A DNA stretch of 64,000 nucleotides from Escherichia coli (lineage in GTDB: Bacteria > Pseudomonadota > Gammaproteobacteria > Enterobacterales > Enterobacteriaceae), in assembly GCF_046105845.1 (NCBI RefSeq), contig NZ_CP151004.1. One strand, 5' to 3'. Shown in pieces: positions 9,440-20,500 of the stretch. The position numbers and the translations under genes are program-made. The notes below the pieces were generated by a model, which was not told the DNA's origin, made no database searches, and saw only the letters and a program-made list of their open reading frames with translations. Numbering within the stretch: position 1 is the stretch's first letter; each line of letters begins with the position of its first letter.

Positions 9440-10363
9440 ATGGAAAAAAATAGTCTGTTTAGTCAGCGCATCCGTTTGCGCCACCTTCATACATTCGTAG
9501 CTGTCGCACAACAAGGAACTTTGGGGCGCGCGGCTGAAACCCTTAATTTGAGTCAACCTGCGCTCTCTAAGACATTGAATGAACTGGAGCAACTGACGGG
9601 CGCTCGCTTGTTTGAGCGTGGTCGTCAGGGGGCGCAACTTACCTTACCCGGCGAACAATTTTTAACGCATGCAGTCAGAGTTCTTGACGCCATCAACACT
9701 GCCGGACAGTCGCTTCATCGTAAAGAAGGTCTTAATAATGATGTCGTCAGGGTTGGTGCACTACCTACTGCGGCACTGGGGATATTACCTTCGGTTATAG
9801 GTCAGTTTCATCAGCAACAAAAAGAGACGACCTTGCAAGTTGCAACAATGAGTAACCCTATGATTCTGGCAGGTTTAAAAACCGGGGAAATCGATATCGG
9901 CATTGGTCGGATGTCAGATCCTGAACTGATGACCGGGCTTAATTACGAACTGCTGTTTCTTGAATCGCTGAAGCTGGTTGTCCGCCCTAATCACCCGCTA
10001 CTTCAGGAGAACGTAACGCTAAGCCGGGTGCTGGAATGGCCGGTTGTTGTATCACCAGAAGGCACTGCGCCACGCCAGCATTCAGATGCATTAGTGCAGA
10101 GCCAGGGCTGTAAAATTCCTTCGGGCTGTATCGAAACACTGTCTGCTTCTCTATCTCGTCAACTTACGGTTGAATACGACTACGTGTGGTTTGTCCCTTC
10201 TGGCGCTGTAAAAGACGACCTGCGTCATGCCACGCTGGTGGCCCTACCTGTTCCGGGTCATGGTGCAGGCGAACCGATTGGAATACTGACCCGCGTAGAT
10301 GCGACGTTCTCTTCTGGTTGCCAGTTGATGATTAACGCTATTCGAAAATCAATGCCGTTCTGA
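9440..10363 (+). CDS. ydcI: LysR-family transcriptional regulator YdcI
   Basis: ORF track start over-extended; ATG at 9440 (MEKNSLFSQRIRLRHLHTFVAVAQQGTLGRAAE, LysR HTH) gives 307 aa. Confidence 0.9.
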   Translation: MEKNSLFSQRIRLRHLHTFVAVAQQGTLGRAAETLNLSQPALSKTLNELEQLTGARLFERGRQGAQLTLPGEQFLTHAVRVLDAINTAGQSLHRKEGLNNDVVRVGALPTAALGILPSVIGQFHQQQKETTLQVATMSNPMILAGLKTGEIDIGIGRMSDPELMTGLNYELLFLESLKLVVRPNHPLLQENVTLSRVLEWPVVVSPEGTAPRQHSDALVQSQGCKIPSGCIETLSASLSRQLTVEYDYVWFVPSGAVKDDLRHATLVALPVPGHGAGEPIGILTRVDATFSSGCQLMINAIRKSMPF

Positions 10364-10368
10364 AAGGT

Positions 10369-10392
10369 GAAGGGATCTGTCGATCCCTCCTT
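10369..10392. terminator. Hairpin between convergent ydcI and trg (agggatc-tgtc-gatccct)
   Basis: 7-bp stem in 37-bp convergent intergenic region; weak T-runs. Confidence 0.4.
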
Positions 10393-10400
10393 AAACATTT

Positions 10401-12041
10401 TCACACTGTAGCGAAACTAACTGGTTCACCAGCTCCGCGAGGTACTGCCGACACGGAATGTTTGTTCAGACGAAATACGTCCACCGCCTCAGCTAATCGT
10501 GCCGCCTGTTCTTCAAGGGACACCGCCGCCGCTGAGGCCTCTTCTACCAGAGAAGCATTCTGTTGCGTCACCTTATCCATTTCAGAAATCGCCTGGCTAA
10601 CCTGCGTTATGCCCCTACTTTGCTCATCCGAGGCGGCGGCAATTTCCTGCATGATATGTGTGACACTCGCGACGGCATCAACAATAGTGCTCATGGTTTT
10701 CCCGGCCGTGGCCACCTCATCCGATCCCAGGTCAATTAACCTGACTGATTCACTGATCAAGCCTTCAATCTCTTTCGCCGCCTGAGCGCTGCGGCTTGCG
10801 AGTGTCCGTACTTCGCTGGCGACAACGGCAAATCCACGCCCTTGCTCACCCGCTCGCGCGGCTTCAACGGCAGCATTCAGTGCCAGAATATTCGTCTGGA
10901 AAGCAATACTGTTGATGACGGCGGTGATCTCAGAAATTTTCTTCGAACTCGTGGAGATAGCGCCCATCGTTTTTACTACACCGGAAACCGTCTGCCCGCC
11001 ATTGCAGGCTTTAATAGAAGCCTCTTGCGCCAGTTTGCTGGCATGATGCGCGTTATCTGCATTCTGTTTCACCGTCGCAGTAAGTTGCTCCATGCTGGCG
11101 GCAGTTTGTTCGATAGCCGCCGCTTGTTCTTCGGTGCGAGATGACAGGTCCGCATTGCCAGCTGAAATTTCGCTGGTGCCACGATAAATCTCTTCCGCAC
11201 CCTGTCGAACAGTCCCTACTGTCATCCCCAGTGAATGCTGCATTTGCTGTAAATGACGACTTAAGCGACCGATTTCATTACGACCTGCCGGATCATCATT
11301 CATCGTCAGATCGCCACTGGCGATTTTTTCAATCCGTTGTGCGGCATGTTGCAGTGGACGAATGACAATCCGACGTAGCACCATAAATGTTATCAGTGTC
11401 ATGACCAGGGCAAGCACAAACGCGCCAATCATGAACATCCCACCCAGGCGGGTGCGCTGATGGGCCAGTTCCGCCAGTTGGTTGGCTCTGGTGCTACGTA
11501 TCTTAACGGCTTTGCTCAAAATATCGGTATAAGCATTATCCAGCGGTCGGATCTGCTCACTTTCATGATTGATAATCGCTTCAAACATGCCATTTTTGGC
11601 ATATTTCAACATCGGTTGCATACCCGTGATATAAGCCTGGAAGCGTTGATTTAATTCAGTGTCGAGGGCTTCATCAGCAGGTGTTTTCACCGACCGATTC
11701 TGATAAGCACGATACCCTTGCTGCGACTGTTTAATCTCCGATTCGGCTTGCGCAATATTTCGCTTCATTGCTTCCATTTCCGCAATACGACTCGCTGCCC
11801 CGGCCTGAATCATATTGACCCGGGCTGAACGCAAAAAATCTGAACTGTTCGCTAACCCGGTCCGAATCTCAATTTCCGCAGTAACATCCCGCTGATCGCG
11901 ATCGGCCTGCCAGAGGAAATAGCCAGCCAGAGCTGAACTTAATGCGAATAGAACTAAGATACCGCCAAGAATGCAGGCAAATAACGGAACCAGCCTGATG
12001 TGATGCAAAAAACCTAATCGCTGTGAGGGAGTTGTATTCAT
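10401..12041 (-). CDS. trg: Methyl-accepting chemotaxis protein III (ribose/galactose sensor) Trg
   Basis: 546-aa ORF with MCP signalling domain and methylation region ([21 protein letters not shown]); K-12 synteny. Confidence 0.93.
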
Positions 12042-12080
12042 TACCGTTGTCTCTCTTCCAGGTTTACTCCTGATAGAAAG

Positions 12081-12107
12081 TCATCGGCACTTGACGGTAA
12101 TTTCTTA
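12081..12107 (-). promoter_or_regulatory. Putative sigma-28 (FliA) promoter for trg: TAAG-N15-GCCGATGA on minus strand
   Basis: Reverse complement of 12081-12107 reads taag aaattaccgtcaagt gccgatga, close to FliA consensus TAAA-N15-GCCGATAA, about 40-65 nt upstream of trg ATG. Confidence 0.5.
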
Positions 12108-12334
12108 CGACCAAAAACCTCTTTGCGTCACATTTTTACAACAATTATGGCAGAGAAGATTAATGCCATTGGAATGAAGAGAGTAACGAATGATTAAACT
12201 GGCTAAACCGAATGACGAAAAATTCTGGAAAACAGCACGCAATTTCGTCAGGTGATTATTTTCGTCCCTAAGGAAACCACATAGGATGCTCACGGGTGCC
12301 TGAGACTTTCTGTTTTCAGGCTAACCGGGAATCA

Positions 12335-12381
12335 GAAAGACGAAGGCCCCGACCGATATTTCTATCAACCGAGGCCAACGA

Positions 12382-12395
<14 letters not shown>
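12335..12395 (-). ncRNA. sokB: Approximate position of SokB antisense RNA (antitoxin of hokB), inferred by locus architecture only
   Basis: hok/sok loci encode Sok antisense to the mok translation-initiation region; boundaries not determinable by eye. Confidence 0.3.
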
Positions 12396-12589
<194 letters not shown>

Positions 12590-12653
12590 GGGCAAGCGCG
12601 GGGATTTTCCCCGCGCATCTGACTAGCGGATTCATTTTCTCATGGCACCCCTT

Positions 12654-12833
12654 TTACACTTCAGTAGTGCATGTTTTTTTCGATGCACTAATAGAACCAT
12701 CATTACAGACAAATTTGCCGCCTGCCGTACAGTGTGAGATCCCCCCTTTAGAACCAGAACAGGGTTTGCGCCCGGCATCGGCATAAAAGGAAACAAGCGC
12801 TCCCATAACCAAGATAAGTGCCAGTTTTTTCAT
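12654..12833 (-). CDS. ydcA: Small secreted/lipoprotein-like protein YdcA
   Basis: 59-aa product [59 protein letters not shown] with SD (ggaggt) upstream; missed by ORF track. Confidence 0.8.
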
Positions 12834-13003
12834 ATAACCTCCATGGTTTATCGAATCTTATGTTCGATTTGAACGTTATACGCTGGTTTATTTTGATACC
12901 GTTGATGAGATCAAAGATCGGGTGAATTGATTAAAGATAAGCCAGATGGACGTATGGACCAGGATTATGGTTTTATTTGTCATACAAATAAATATAATAG
13001 GCG

Positions 13004-13068
13004 CTTCCGATGTAGGCCCGTATTCTTCGCCTGTACCACGGGTCGGTTTTAGTACAGGCGTTTTCTTT
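13004..13068 (+). ncRNA. rydC: RydC small regulatory RNA (Hfq-dependent)
   Basis: cttccgatgtaggcccgtattcttcgcctgtaccacgggtcggttttagtacaggcgttttctt matches remembered RydC sequence nearly base-for-base; located between ydcA and cybB as in K-12. Confidence 0.85.
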
Positions 13069-13077
13069 AAATATCCT

Positions 13078-13608
13078 TCAGGAACGTTTACGCGGCATCA
13101 TGCGTAGAAGTGTGTTGTCCTTCCAGAAATAATGGTGTGCCAGTGCAGCCGCAGCGTGCAACCCGATGACAAAGTATCCCATATTCGCCAGCGTTTCATG
13201 CCACGACTTTAAGCTATCAACCCGTTCGAAATTGGCCTCTGATGCATAAGGCATCGTCATACCAAACGCAAACCACGGGTTACCCCGGTTATACATCATC
13301 ACCAAACCAATCACTGGCAGCGCAATAAACAGGAGATAGATCACCAAATGTCCCAAATGCGCCAGTCCCGTCATCATCGGTTTTGGCTTAGGTATAATCG
13401 GCGGGGTTGGGTATTTCAGCCTTAACAAAAGACGAACCACCATCAGCACGAGAATTGTGATGCCACAGGAAACATGAATCATGTTGATGAGCGGCCGATC
13501 GCTACGTGGGAAGAAACCACGAAACTCCATTGCGCAATACGCTGCGATAACCAGCAAAAAGACCAGCCAGTGAATGCTGATTTGTAACCTTGAGTATTTA
13601 TTTTCCAT
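13078..13608 (-). CDS. cybB: Cytochrome b561 CybB
   Basis: Start trimmed to MENKYSRLQISIHWLVFLL (176 aa); His-rich heme-binding TM protein. Confidence 0.9.
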   Translation of the reverse strand: MENKYSRLQISIHWLVFLLVIAAYCAMEFRGFFPRSDRPLINMIHVSCGITILVLMVVRLLLRLKYPTPPIIPKPKPMMTGLAHLGHLVIYLLFIALPVIGLVMMYNRGNPWFAFGMTMPYASEANFERVDSLKSWHETLANMGYFVIGLHAAAALAHHYFWKDNTLLRMMPRKRS

Positions 13609-13796
13609 AACATTTCCTGCTTTAAAACAATTTGCCGTTAACATAACGAGCTTTTCTTAAAATTTCATTAAATATTGTTCACCCGTTTTCAGTACGTTAC
13701 GTTTCACGGCAAGAATGTAGATTGCCCATCCCGCCATCCTGGTCTAAGCCTGGAAAGGATCAATTTTCATCCGAACGTTCCTGACAGGAGAAGACC

Positions 13797-14798
13797 ATGA
13801 GTAAAGTTGGTATTAACGGTTTTGGTCGTATCGGTCGACTGGTGTTGCGTCGATTACTTGAAGTCAAAAGCAACATAGACATTGTTGCTATTAATGATCT
13901 CACTTCCCCAAAAATTCTCGCCTACCTGTTGAAACATGATTCAAACTACGGACCGTTCCCCTGGAGCGTTGATTTTACGGAAGATTCACTTATCGTTGAT
14001 GGAAAAAGTATCGCGGTTTACGCCGAAAAAGAGGCTAAAAATATTCCATGGAAAGCGAAAGGCGCAGAAATCATTGTCGAATGTACTGGCTTTTATACCT
14101 CCGCCGAGAAATCGCAGGCGCACCTTGATGCTGGTGCGAAGAAGGTGTTGATTTCCGCCCCTGCCGGTGAAATGAAAACCATCGTTTATAACGTCAATGA
14201 CGACACACTGGATGGCAACGACACCATTGTTTCCGTGGCGTCATGCACCACTAATTGTCTTGCACCGATGGCCAAAGCCTTGCACGACAGTTTCGGAATA
14301 GAAGTCGGCACGATGACGACCATTCATGCCTATACCGGCACTCAGTCACTGGTGGATGGTCCGCGAGGTAAAGATCTACGCGCTTCACGTGCAGCGGCAG
14401 AAAATATCATTCCCCACACTACAGGTGCGGCAAAAGCCATTGGTCTGGTGATCCCGGAACTGAGCGGCAAACTGAAAGGTCATGCGCAACGCGTGCCGGT
14501 GAAAACAGGTTCGGTGACTGAGCTGGTATCGATTCTCGGAAAAAAAGTGACTGCCGAAGAGGTGAATAACGCACTTAAACAAGCAACCACCAATAACGAG
14601 TCATTTGGTTATACCGATGAAGAAATAGTCTCTTCCGATATCATTGGCAGCCATTTCGGTTCGGTGTTTGATGCCACGCAAACGGAAATTACCGCCGTGG
14701 GCGATTTACAACTGGTGAAAACGGTCGCCTGGTACGATAACGAATATGGCTTCGTCACGCAGCTTATTCGCACCCTCGAAAAGTTCGCTAAACTCTGA
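13797..14798 (+). CDS. gapC: Glyceraldehyde-3-phosphate dehydrogenase GapC, full-length (333 aa)
   Basis: Intact ORF with GAPDH motifs ([21 protein letters not shown]); at K-12 gapC position. Confidence 0.9.
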
Positions 14799-14806
14799 CG
14801 CGCAAA

Positions 14807-14835
14807 GGCGGAGGGGAAAACCTCCGCCTCTTTTA
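14807..14835 (+). terminator. Rho-independent terminator after gapC (ggcggagg-ggaaaa-cctccgcc + TCTTTT)
   Basis: 8-bp GC-rich stem followed by T-run, between convergent gapC and aldA. Confidence 0.7.
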
Positions 14836-14839
14836 CTCA

Positions 14840-16279
14840 TTACGACTGTAAATAAACCACCTGGGTCTGCAGGTATTCATGCAAGCCATGTTTGCCATCT
14901 GCGCCGCCAATACCCGATTTACGCCATCCGGCGTGGAATCCTTGCATAGCTTCGAAGTTTTCACGGTTGATGTAAGTTTCACCAAACTTCAGCCCTTTAA
15001 TGGCTTTCATCGCGACGTTCAGATTTTGGGTATAGAGTGATGAGGTCAGGCCGTAATCACTGTCATTAGCCATTGAGATAGCCTCTTCCAGCGTGTCAAA
15101 TGCGACCACTGGCAGCACCGGGCCAAAGGTTTCCTCGTGCATAATCGACATTTCCTGGCGAACATCCAGCAGCAATGTCGGCGGATAATAATATCCTTTC
15201 CCCTCTACCGCTTTGCCACCCAACGCCACTCTCGCCCCTTCTTCTACTGCGCGCGCCACTTTTTGCTCGACCCTTTCCAGCGCCGCGGCGTTAATCAACG
15301 GCCCCATCGCAATGTCGTTGCGTTCAGCGGGGTTACCAAATTGAACCGCCTGCATCGCTTCACCCAGCCGATTGACGAACTGATCATAAATGCCTTTCTG
15401 TACATAAACACGTTCTGCACAGTTACACACTTGCCCACTATTAATGACGCGTGAATCAACGATGGCTTTGACTGCCAGTTCAAGATCGGCATCGTCCATT
15501 ACGATAGCCGGTGCTTTACCCCCCAATTCCAGGCACACTTTGGTGATGTTTTTCGCCGCAGTCGTCATAATCTTTTCACCTGCAGAGACGCTGCCTGTCA
15601 TACTGACCATTGCGACCTTTGGGTTACCCGCCAGTTCTTGCCCAACGGTTTCACCACGCCCCAGAACAAGGTTAAACACGCCGCGCGGAAGGCCTATTTC
15701 ATCGACGATTTTGGCGAATGCAATCGCATTGTTTGGCGTAAATTCACTGGGTTTAATGACGATGGTATTACCGGTCAAAAGAGCGGGAGCCATTTTGCGG
15801 GCAATGAGGAAGAACGGGAAGTTCCACGGCAGAATGCCGGTAGTCACGCCAAGCGCACGTTTAAACAGAAGAATATTTTCTCCTGGACGATCGCTTTGAA
15901 TAATCTCGCCTTCATAACGCCGTGCCCACTCCGCCATGTAATCGATATAGTCCGCAGTAAAAGCCACTTCGACTTCAGCCAACTGCTGGATCTTGCCCCC
16001 TTCTTCAACAATCAGCGCACTGATTTCACTGGCGCGTTCGCGGATCCCGGCGGAGATTTTGCGCAACCAACTGGCGCGTTCAATAGCAGGCAACGCTTCC
16101 CATTCTGGTTGTGCACGTTCTGCTGCATCGATTGCTTTACGGGCATCCTCGGCCTGACCATCGGGAATGCGGGAAATGACCGCCTCTGTAGCAGGGTTTA
16201 CCACATCAATCCATGCGTCTCCACGCCAGGTAACAAACTGTCCATCAATATACATAGGATGTTGAACGGGTACTGACAT
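14840..16279 (-). CDS. aldA: Lactaldehyde/glycolaldehyde dehydrogenase AldA (NAD-dependent aldehyde dehydrogenase)
   Basis: 479-aa ORF, aldehyde dehydrogenase signatures (catalytic Cys region VCNCAERVYVQ, ELGGKAP); K-12 synteny. Confidence 0.93.
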   Translation of the reverse strand: MSVPVQHPMYIDGQFVTWRGDAWIDVVNPATEAVISRIPDGQAEDARKAIDAAERAQPEWEALPAIERASWLRKISAGIRERASEISALIVEEGGKIQQLAEVEVAFTADYIDYMAEWARRYEGEIIQSDRPGENILLFKRALGVTTGILPWNFPFFLIARKMAPALLTGNTIVIKPSEFTPNNAIAFAKIVDEIGLPRGVFNLVLGRGETVGQELAGNPKVAMVSMTGSVSAGEKIMTTAAKNITKVCLELGGKAPAIVMDDADLELAVKAIVDSRVINSGQVCNCAERVYVQKGIYDQFVNRLGEAMQAVQFGNPAERNDIAMGPLINAAALERVEQKVARAVEEGARVALGGKAVEGKGYYYPPTLLLDVRQEMSIMHEETFGPVLPVVAFDTLEEAISMANDSDYGLTSSLYTQNLNVAMKAIKGLKFGETYINRENFEAMQGFHAGWRKSGIGGADGKHGLHEYLQTQVVYLQS

Positions 16280-16475
16280 GGGCGACTCCTGTGATTTATA
16301 TGTTTGTTTTCGGTGAATACATTGTTAATTAACATCAATCATCAAAGAGACGGCATCGTGAAAGGACAATTCTGTGAAGGGCTTCATAAAAACAAGTGTA
16401 AAAGGAATAAAAGGCAGAAATAAACGTCAGGAGTCATGCCCGTTTGCAAACAAGTGGTTCACAAACGGGCAATTT

Positions 16476-17276
16476 TTAACGTAACGAGCGACTTTCCATC
16501 GCCTCGATGAGCACCGCATCGTGTTTCAGCGTTTGCCATGCATGGATGACTTCTGCCGGAAAATCAACGTGAACGATAAAATCTCGCCCGCGGGGACCGT
16601 AGCCATCGCTATCATCGCGTAAACGCGGCAGCTCGCCAGTGAGTAGTGAGAGATAACGCTCAACCGGCCATAATCCTTGCAACGGATTAACAAAGATTAC
16701 ACTGTCTGCGTTGTTTCCTAGCTGAGGAACGAATCCGGGATAACTTAACCAGCGTGGTGCATCGGGATTGTCCCCAGTCATACGGCGGAACGTCGCCATC
16801 GTGCGCCGCTGCATGGTGGGGTCCTGAACAACGATAGCCGTATGAACTCGTTCTACGGCCTGATTCAATAGCGCGATGCTAAAGCGTGCGTTTTCACCGC
16901 AGTTTGTTGACTGGTCTTCAATCCAGATTTTTTCATGCGGAATGTGCCAGAACTGATGAGCGATATCCGCCAGGATGGTCGCTTCTGCTCTGCCAGTGGT
17001 GCGGATAGTGTTGTAGTGCGGATGCTGTGCGATGGCACTATACAAAAAAGTTGTCGAGTGACCGATACCACCACTAATCAGTAGAGGAATTTGCTGATCG
17101 CGGGCAATCTTGCATGCCGCATCGATAGTTGGCATAACCGCATTGCCTGCAAGGATCACGCAATCGGCCTGATACGGCATCTCACCGGAGAAATCATCCT
17201 GCGCCAGCCACTGACCGATAACATTTATGGCATCTATGGTTGCCGGCGAAAGCGTCGGAAACGGGGTAATGTTCAT
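16476..17276 (-). CDS. ydcF: DUF218-family protein YdcF
   Basis: 266-aa ORF, strong SD (aggagg) upstream; K-12 synteny. Confidence 0.85.
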
Positions 17277-17490
17277 GGTTCCTCCTTATCGTTCCCTTAA
17301 GAATACTGCGTGAGATAATAGTGAGAAGCGGAGCACTCTGAAAGGAGGAAGTCGTATTTCCTTAACCGCCACTCCGCAAGCCTGACATATCTTTTAAGGA
17401 AATGCTGTAGATAAACATTATTCATCTTGCAGCTGAGAATTGTATTTTTCTGAATTCCTGAATTTTTGCCCTTACCGTTTTAGAATTAAT

Positions 17491-17519
17491 AAAAAACCCG
17501 GCGCTAAATGCTTACCGGG
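17491..17519 (-). terminator. Probable hrpA terminator (short stem cccgg...ccggg followed by T6 on minus strand)
   Basis: Hairpin about 30 nt downstream of hrpA stop with A6 on plus strand. Confidence 0.5.
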
Positions 17520-17547
17520 TTTTAGATTTATCAGGCAAATAGCAGTG

Positions 17548-20500
17548 TTAACCGCTAATCTGCTCCATCGCCTGCAAAATACGCTTATCTGAAATCGGAT
17601 AAGGCGTACCAAGTTGTTGAGCGAAGTAACTAACGCGCAACTCTTCTATCATCCAACGGATCTCTTTAACGTCTTCATCCTCACGACGTGCGGGCGGTAG
17701 TTTGTTGAACCATTGCTGCCACGCCTGCTGGACGTTTTCGACTTTCAGCATCTGAGCACGGTCGCGATGCGGATCAACCGCCAGTTTTTCCAGTCGTTTT
17801 TCAATCGCCTGCAAATAACGCAGCGTGTCGCCCAGCCGTTTAAAACCGTTGCCAGTGACAAAACCGCGATACACCAGCCCGCCCATCTGCGCTTTAATGT
17901 CAGAAAGCCCCAGCGCCATGGTCATATCCACCCGCCCTTTCAGGCGTTTGTTGATATTGAACACTGCCGTAAGGATTTGCTCGACCTGCTTTGCAATATC
18001 CACCACCGTGTCGTTCAGTTCAGCGCGAACTTTTTCATGCAGCGCAGCAAAGCCTTCTTCCGTCCAGACCGGGCCACCATTGGCGTCGATCAGTTGATCC
18101 ACACCGCAGGAGATACAGTCGTCGATCAGCTCCAGCACTTTGCCATACGGGTTAAAGTACAGCCCAAGTTTGGCTTTGTTTGGCAACTTCTCATGCAAGT
18201 ATTTGATTGGTGAAGGAATATTCAGCAGCAGTAAACGACGAAGACCGTTCCACATCGCTTGCTTTTGTTCCAGCGGGTTATCAAACAGTTTGATCGCCAC
18301 GCTGTCGCGCTCATCCACCAACGCTGGCCACGCCTTCACTTTGTAGTTGCCACGCTTCTGTTCGTAGCTTTCCGGCAGCTGACCAAAACTCCAGATATGT
18401 AAGCCGCTCTGCTCGATACCGTCATCCGCCACCGCAGACAGCGTTTCCTGCACTTTGCCTTTCAGAGCATCTTTCAGATCCTGTAATGAGCGCCCTTCTT
18501 TTAACTTCTTGTTTTTGTCATCCACCACACGGAAGGTGATTTTCAGGTGATCGGGCACCTGATCCCAGTGCCAGTCTTCGCGGTCAACGGTGACGCCAGT
18601 CATCCGCCGTAGCTCTCGTTCAAGACTGTCGAGCAACGGCAATTCCAGCGGTGTGACGCGGCCTAGAAACGCTTCGGCGTAGGTTGGCGCGGGCACAAAA
18701 TTACGGCGTACTGGTTTCGGCAACGATTTAATCAGAGCAATCACCAGTTCGCGGCGCAGACCGGGGATCTGCCACTCAAACCCGCTCTCCTCAACCTGGT
18801 TAAGTAACGGCAGCGGGATATGCACAGTCACACCGTCAGCATCTGCCCCCGGCTCAAACTGATAGCTCAAACGCAGTTTGAGATTGCCCTGATGCCAGAA
18901 GTTCGGGTAATCCAGCTTGCTGATCTTTTCCGCCCCTTCTTTGATCAACATGCTCTTTTCAAAGTTGAGCAAATCAGGCGTTTCGCGGCTGACTTTTTTC
19001 CACCAGCTGTCGAAGTGACGTGCGGAGATCACATCGTGGCTGATGCGCTGGTCGTAAAACTCAAACAGCGTTTCGTCATCCACCAGAATATCGCGGCGAC
19101 GTGTTTTGTGTTCCAGTTCTTCCACTTCGGCCCGTAGTTTCAGGTTTTCACGGAAGAATGCGTGACGCGTCTGCCAGTCACCTTCCACCAGCGCGTGGCG
19201 AATAAAGAGTTCACGACATAACGCCGGATCGATCTGGCTGTAGTTGACCTTGCGCGCGGCAACAATCGGCAAGCCATAAACAGTGACTTTTTCCGTTGCC
19301 ATCACCGCGCCCTGCGCCCGTTCCCAGTGTGGTTCGCTGTAGGTGCGTTTAATTAAATGCTGAGCAACTGGCTCCACCCATTCTGGATCGATGCGTGCCG
19401 CAATGCGCCCCCACAGGCGGCTGGTTTCTACCAGTTCCGCCACCATTACCCATTTCGGCGGCTTTTTGAATAAACCAGAACCGGGAAAGATGGAAAAACG
19501 CGCGTTACGTGCGCCGGTATATTCTTGTTTATCGGCATCTTTCATGCCGATATGGGAAAGCAAACCGGTCAGTAAGGCGATGTGAATTTCGCGATACTCC
19601 GCCGGTTCGCTGTTAACCGGAATGCCAAGTTCTTTCACCACCTGGCGCAACTGGGTGTAGATATCCTGCCATTCGCGCACGCGCAGATAGTTGAGATAAT
19701 CGGTACGACACAGGCGACGGAAGGCGTTAGAAGAAAGCGCCTTTTGCTGCTCGCCAAGATAATTCCACAGATTTACAAACGCGAGGAAGTCGGATTCTTT
19801 GTCGTGGAAGCGACGATGTTTTTCGTCCGATGCCTGCTGTTTGTCCATTGGTCGCTCACGCGGATCCTGAATGGAGAGCGCGGACGTGATAATCATCGCC
19901 TCACGCACGCAGCCATGTTTTTGCGCTTCCAGCACCATACGCGCCAGACGAGGATCGACAGGCAATTGCGAAAGCTGGCGACCGAGCGGCGTTAGTTTAT
20001 AGGCGCTGGCCTGTTCATCAGTGGTGATCGCACCCAGCTCTTCAAGCAGACGCACGCCATCCTGGATATTGCGTTTATCCGGTGCTTCGACAAACGGGAA
20101 CGCCGCGATATCACCCAGCCCCAGCGCGGTCATCTGCAAAATAACCGAGGCCAGGTTGGTACGCAGAATCTCCGGATCGGTAAACTCCGGGCGCGAGAGG
20201 AAATCGTCTTCGGAATAGAGACGAATACAGATCCCTTCAGACACACGACCACAGCGGCCTTTACGCTGATTGGCAGACGCCTGCGAAATCGGCTCAATCG
20301 GCAAACGCTGCACTTTGGTGCGATAGCTGTAGCGGCTGATACGTGCTGTACCGGGGTCGATAACGTATTTAATCCCCGGTACGGTCAGCGAGGTTTCCGC
20401 GACGTTGGTCGCCAGCACAATACGCCGTCCGCTGTGCGACTGGAACACGCGGTTCTGTTCGCTGTTCGAAAGCCGCGCATAAAGCGGCAAGATTTCGGTA

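Follow-up and report, generated by a model that had tools for sequence, protein, structure and literature searches.

The gapC gene lies at positions 13797 to 14798 on the plus strand of the window, i.e. the whole 64,000 nucleotide stretch of Escherichia coli DNA that was analysed. In the ORF list as well as in the raw sequence it is a single unbroken reading frame, from the ATG at 13797 to the TGA at 14796-14798, with 333 codons before the stop and with neither an internal stop nor a frameshift, as a first-pass annotation of this DNA had claimed. From its domains, its score against the TIGR01534 model and its best match in the PDB, the product is predicted to be a type I NAD-dependent phosphorylating glyceraldehyde-3-phosphate dehydrogenase (GAPDH). 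A Shine-Dalgarno sequence (AGGAG, 13786-13790, plus strand) can be read six nucleotides 5' of the start codon, and in the Rfam scan no match overlaps the gene.

Two neighbours, both identified from the ORF list and from the annotation of K-12 and 19KM1831, define the synteny. Upstream and divergent is cybB (cytochrome b561, 13078-13608, minus strand), separated from gapC by an intergenic region (13609-13796) that is the presumed promoter region of gapC in this strain. Downstream and convergent is aldA (aldehyde dehydrogenase, 14840-16279, minus strand), with ydcF beyond it (16476-17276, minus strand) in the ORF list; the same gene order is found in annotated E. coli. The order cybB-gapC-aldA is colinear with the annotated regions of K-12 and 19KM1831, which places the gene in the orthologous position. 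The 41 nucleotide gap between gapC and aldA is occupied by a hairpin resembling an intrinsic terminator, found by the terminator scan on the plus strand at 14806-14834. Its stem (14806-14829) begins eight nucleotides past the gapC stop, has 9 bp with 7 G-C pairs and a 6-nt loop, and is followed directly by CTTTT. The energy of the fold is -19.7 kcal/mol, with a z of -3.6 relative to dinucleotide shuffles, and the stem is kept in K-12, where the loop and the flank are altered. The terminator had been described as clean; the hairpin bears this out, but with a short U-tract of four residues the word is slightly generous.

The surroundings of cybB contain some further features. The longest ORF for cybB has 188 amino acids and starts at 13644 (13078-13644, minus strand), whereas the RefSeq product has 176 amino acids with a start equivalent to 13608, i.e. 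the mechanical ORF is over-extended N-terminally by 12 codons. Just past the 3' end of cybB, Rfam matches the RydC sRNA at 13004-13067 on the plus strand (90.5 bits, gathering score 48). Another Rfam match, "sok antitoxin" with 109.7 bits, adjoins a 49 amino acid ORF that corresponds to the type I toxin hokB annotated in K-12 and 19KM1831. The sok match and the hokB ORF make up a hok/sok-type toxin-antitoxin locus at 12294-12445 and 12440-12589, both on the plus strand. In K-12 HMS174 a copy of IS150 lies upstream of hokB; it is absent from the window (about 11000-12300) and from 19KM1831, where trg is found instead.

In E. coli K-12 the same locus between cybB and aldA holds a pseudogene, gapC_1/gapC_2 (b1417/b1416), in place of the intact gene of the window. 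That the K-12 copy is annotated as a pseudogene had been stated in the first-pass annotation and is borne out by RefSeq, where it is described as "frameshifted; internal stop", and by the literature, which lists gapC_1 (b1417) as "interrupted" (PMC4512719). Aligning the window to K-12 substr. HMS174, the comparison that had been proposed for locating the lesion, gives 29 substitutions and one indel, with 97.0% identical DNA. Two of these changes are disabling. At codon 39 (13911-13913) the window has AAA (Lys), while K-12 has TAA (stop) owing to a substitution at 13911. The second is a deletion of 1 bp in the run of seven A over Gly248-Lys249-Lys250 (14540-14546); K-12 has six, the frame shifts and a stop follows at codon 251. 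K-12 gapC also carries R18G, where the window has Arg18.

Next to this stands the frequency of the intact gene in the species. Of 5426 complete E. coli genomes, 5417 have a match to gapC, and in 5409 the copy is full-length, with a nucleotide identity of 96-100%. Plasmid-labelled records account for 5 of 5426 gapC matches, and nine genomes lack a match. Using allele-specific 42-mers, the allele with the K-12 stop (TAA39) is present in 1155 of the 5426 genomes (21%) and the AAA39 allele in at least 3717, and about 545 genomes are left unclassified by these searches. Among the unclassified is the O157-type allele, which has AAA39 but escapes the 28-mer seed owing to two SNPs on its flanks. The exact 89-mer of K-12 with six A occurs in at least 1032 genomes, a lower bound as any SNP within the 89-mer drops a record from the exact-match band. 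The state with seven A is found in thousands of independent genomes.

The annotation was sampled in 40 records, evenly spaced among the gapC matches in complete genomes. Nine of the 40 have a gapC span of 1001 bp, eight of these at K-12-level identity to the query. All three of the 1001-bp records for which the annotation was read are pseudogenes (K-12 and EC4, "frameshifted; internal stop", and FCI29, "frameshifted"). For 17 of the sampled copies of 1002 bp the annotation was read; 16 are annotated as intact and one has a stop at E254. The frequency counts and the annotation sample together put the share of complete E. coli genomes with an intact gapC at roughly 70-75%, i.e. it is the majority state. 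Here it is K-12 that deviates, and the allele in the window is an ordinary intact form. The novelty that the first-pass annotation implied for an intact gapC therefore finds no support, also because such genes were described already in 1998 (cited in PMC2949598). A protein identical to that of the window is present in RefSeq as WP_000048646.1 ("gap"), in the annotation of at least two complete genomes, 19KM1831 among them. Most intact alleles carry Val29, while the window allele has Ile29.

The K-12 lesions are not the only ones. In the seawater isolate PCP06101 the gene is interrupted by a stop at E254, which is not of the K-12 type. In FCI29 the run of seven A is reduced to six on a B2-type allele, independently of K-12, a change that may be a homopolymer error of sequencing or assembly. 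In SCPM-O-B-7615, one of the 40 sampled records, a deletion associated with IS1 removes the 3' part of gapC as well as that of aldA. Counting the K-12-type clade, the E254 stop, the second loss of one A and the IS1 deletion, at least four independent inactivations are found in a small sample. The repeated loss in other lineages indicates that some niches, at least, do not require the gene. The K-12 lesions are shared with wild and clinical genomes (sources of TAA39 genomes include humans, a migratory bird, a frog, chicken and biosolids), so laboratory domestication does not account for them; they are a natural polymorphism, found across diverse hosts in roughly one in five complete genomes, rather than a consequence of laboratory passage.

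To describe the selection acting on the gene, the window gapC was compared with nine other alleles. The pairs differ by 22-35 synonymous and 1-6 nonsynonymous changes, with a dN/dS of 0.01-0.05 at a dS of 0.10-0.16. The allele of FXCREC043 differs from the window by 26 nucleotides and by no amino acid. Such patterns in the alleles clearly point to maintenance by purifying selection, which argues for expression and usefulness of the gene in most lineages. The dS of 0.10-0.16, which is unusually high, led us to consider an import specific to gapC; this was rejected, as the divergence from K-12 is about 2.4% and uniform across 5.5 kb.

At the level of DNA, gapC of 19KM1831 is 100% identical to the window. 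The identity spans about 13788-15287, i.e. gapC and the 3' end of aldA, and in the flanks of this segment 1-6% of the positions per 250 bp are different from 19KM1831. Over positions 10000-20000 of the window, the best match among complete E. coli genomes is 19KM1831 with 98.8%, and none reaches 99%. From these identities the region around gapC looks like a local recombination mosaic relative to 19KM1831.

Evidence on expression comes mainly from K-12. A ChIP-seq peak of sigma-S RNA polymerase has been reported there in the intergenic region of gapC_1 and cybB (PMC4447067), and a study of RpoS and cAMP-CRP during carbon-limited growth tabulates gapC_1 among the differentially expressed genes, at 5.6-fold (PMC4512719). 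Between the window and K-12 the intergenic region has 11 differences in 188 positions, and the promoter is likely to be conserved between K-12 and the window strain. A scan of 13550-14950 for sigma-70 consensus promoters found none; a sigma-S promoter is not expected to fit that consensus well. According to PMC2949598, a later article from the group of Espinosa-Urgel, the 1998 paper of Espinosa-Urgel and Kolter in Molecular Microbiology reported gapC to be intact in environmental or natural isolates and expressed preferentially in fresh water. Together, the promoter data from K-12 and the literature suggest that gapC would be expressed in the window strain. Literature searches for the physiology of GapC in strains with the intact gene returned mostly papers on plant GAPC. 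In C43(DE3), a widely used host of the BL21 lineage, an IS1A lies between cybB and the intact gapC and could change the promoter activity.

The gene could also be intact and still cryptic, i.e. not expressed to any meaningful extent, with too little time passed for it to decay. GapA is the established housekeeping GAPDH of E. coli. The lack of a sigma-70 consensus promoter upstream would fit a silent gene, and so would the several independent inactivations elsewhere (the K39 stop with the frameshift, the E254 stop, the loss of one A on the B2-type allele and the IS1 truncation). However, the dN/dS of 0.01-0.05 at a dS of 0.10-0.16 is irreconcilable with a gene that has long been silent, and the same is seen in the FXCREC043 allele, where all 26 differences are synonymous and none is nonsynonymous. 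The sigma-S polymerase peak upstream of the gene in K-12, the differential transcript levels and the freshwater expression reported in the literature also speak against silence. We consider a cryptic gapC very unlikely.

The assignment of the product to its family is based on several models. The NAD-binding domain Gp_dh_N (PF00044) covers residues 3-102 with E = 8.6e-36 and the catalytic domain Gp_dh_C (PF02800) residues 155-313 with E = 6.5e-58, both over the full length of the model. The curated equivalog for type I GAPDH, TIGR01534, gives 446.7 bits, above its cut-off of 367.2, and the match runs from residue 3 to 325 and over positions 1-330 of the 330 in the model. All other curated models tried stay below their cut-offs, i.e. 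the GapA-type model NF011954 / PRK15425 (301.9 vs 662 bits), the Epd models TIGR01532 and NF010058 (276.5 vs 530.55 and 279.8 vs 539) and the model of the ArsJ-associated GAPDH, NF033735 (307.3 vs 450 bits). For the latter no arsJ is adjacent either, the neighbours being cybB and aldA.

The first-pass annotation had stated that the GxGxxG motif and the region of the catalytic cysteine are kept. Both can be located, the former as G8-F-G10-R-I-G13, which is the same in GapA, and the latter as Cys150 in VASCTTN, within the motif S-C-T-T-N-C, which aligns with the catalytic cysteine of GapA. His177 in TTIHAYT is retained too and aligns with the catalytic histidine of GapA. Asp34 in AINDL, an acidic residue favouring NAD over NADP, is shared with GapA, and the residues of the phosphate sites (Ps/Pi), Thr180, Thr209-Gly210 and Arg232, all align. 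A loss of catalytic residues upon proper alignment had been named as a ground for refutation; aligned with GapA, all the catalytic and cofactor residues that were checked are retained. GapC thus has the fold and the catalytic motifs of the housekeeping enzyme (SCTTNCLAP, His177, Thr180, Arg232 and NGFGRIGR all align), but the two proteins differ in other respects: GapC is only 47% identical to K-12 GapA, its gene is at another locus, and its regulation is probably different (sigma-S dependent). Epd (GapB), an erythrose-4-phosphate dehydrogenase, is another paralog with the GAPDH fold in the same genome, and GapC fails both of its curated models. According to these comparisons the gapC product is predicted to be a type I NAD-dependent phosphorylating GAPDH, a paralog distinct from both GapA and Epd.

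In the PDB the best match to GapC is the 7C5F series, described as EcGAPDH1, with 332 of 333 residues identical. The sole difference is at position 29, Ile in the window and Val in the PDB. The gapC of C43(DE3), from the BL21 lineage, translates exactly into the core sequence of 7C5F, and it follows that the published EcGAPDH1 is the gapC product. The PDB construct has in addition an N-terminal tag of 19 residues, and the name gapC is absent from the paper (PMC8615399). EcGAPDH1 shares Cys150, His177 and the loop 208-215 with the GapC of the window. The Val29 protein was shown by Zhang et al. (2021) to oxidise glyceraldehyde-3-phosphate (G3P) with NAD in the presence of phosphate, with a Km for G3P of 0.73 mM, and mutants of C150 and H177 lost the activity (PMC8615399). 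The assays were performed at 50 deg C and pH 10, i.e. under non-physiological conditions (PMC8615399). The same paper describes crystal structures that contain NAD, G3P, the thioacyl intermediate and 1,3-bisphosphoglycerate (1,3-BPG) (PMC8615399). A change between Ile and Val is conservative, and at position 29, in a beta-strand of the Rossmann domain, it is probably neutral for the activity.

Another activity or cofactor would be a different outcome of the same fold, i.e. an Epd-like erythrose-4-phosphate dehydrogenase, a GAPDH partner of ArsJ, or an NADP-dependent or non-phosphorylating enzyme. Epd (GapB) is an E. coli GAPDH paralog with an altered substrate and provides a precedent within the species, and GapC does have sub-threshold matches to both the Epd and the ArsJ-associated models. 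But only TIGR01534 passes its cut-off, with Epd at 276-280 vs 530-539 bits and the ArsJ-associated model at 307 vs 450, the neighbours are cybB and aldA and not arsJ, and Asp34 is typical of NAD-preferring enzymes. Moreover, the Val29 variant uses NAD+ and phosphate in oxidising G3P, and it has been crystallised with NAD, G3P and 1,3-BPG bound. Such a change of activity appears very improbable to us. Finally, the intactness could be an artefact of sequencing or assembly at the run of seven A with a true gene like that of K-12, as errors in homopolymer length occur often in long-read assemblies and the frameshift site is exactly such an A6/A7 run, but this is hardly credible given that the K-12 nonsense codon, a substitution and not a homopolymer error, is also absent, that seven A are found in thousands of independent genomes, and that the 29 other differences from K-12 show that the allele is not of the K-12 type.

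We therefore regard it as very likely that the window carries an ordinary intact gapC allele, encoding a functional second GAPDH that would supplement GapA, with a transcription that is probably sigma-S-dependent. The first-pass annotation had proposed that the strain may express a second functional GAPDH, and the coding capacity for one is upheld by the TIGR01534 score, the retained residues, the 332 of 333 residues shared with an assayed enzyme and the dN/dS of 0.01-0.05. GapC would be a homotetrameric NAD-dependent enzyme converting glyceraldehyde-3-phosphate, NAD+ and phosphate into 1,3-bisphosphoglycerate and NADH, with Cys150 forming the thioacyl intermediate and His177 acting as the base. 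The gene, which has a ribosome-binding site and a hairpin terminator of its own, would form a monocistronic unit; transcription probably starts at a sigma-S-dependent promoter between cybB and gapC. The gene would be turned on in stationary phase, under nutrient limitation or in aquatic conditions, and GapC would then supplement GapA. The intact ORF, the family, the residues, the synteny, the population frequency and the purifying selection are direct observations of this analysis. The catalytic activity is that of the Val29 variant in the literature, which is also the source for the expression in fresh water, and the expression and regulation in this strain are what we infer from these.

The very strong purifying selection in most E. 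coli and the repeated independent knock-outs elsewhere could be brought together if gapC is conditionally useful and under balancing, niche-dependent selection. We propose this only tentatively, as it is somewhat less probable than its opposite. If it is true, the K-12 lesions would be a natural polymorphism between lineages rather than a result of domestication, and the run of seven A could serve as a slippage-prone on/off site.

Much of what is described here is already documented. The intact gapC outside K-12, the potential second GAPDH and K-12 as the exception are found in the literature since 1998, in RefSeq and in the crystal structures; what is said here of the 1998 paper and of the 2020 Acta Cryst F paper (PMC7470045) is second-hand, taken from PMC2949598, PMC1796617 and PMC8615399. 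What is mildly new is that the lesions of K-12 gapC are common to about one fifth of complete genomes, both wild and clinical, and that other lineages have inactivated the gene independently. The significance is small beyond a correct annotation, and the gene shows once more that K-12 is not typical of the species at the gapC locus. Most E. coli, including production strains of the BL21 lineage, encode two phosphorylating GAPDHs, and this bears on metabolic models, on designs for the knock-down of gapA and on proteomics databases based on K-12.
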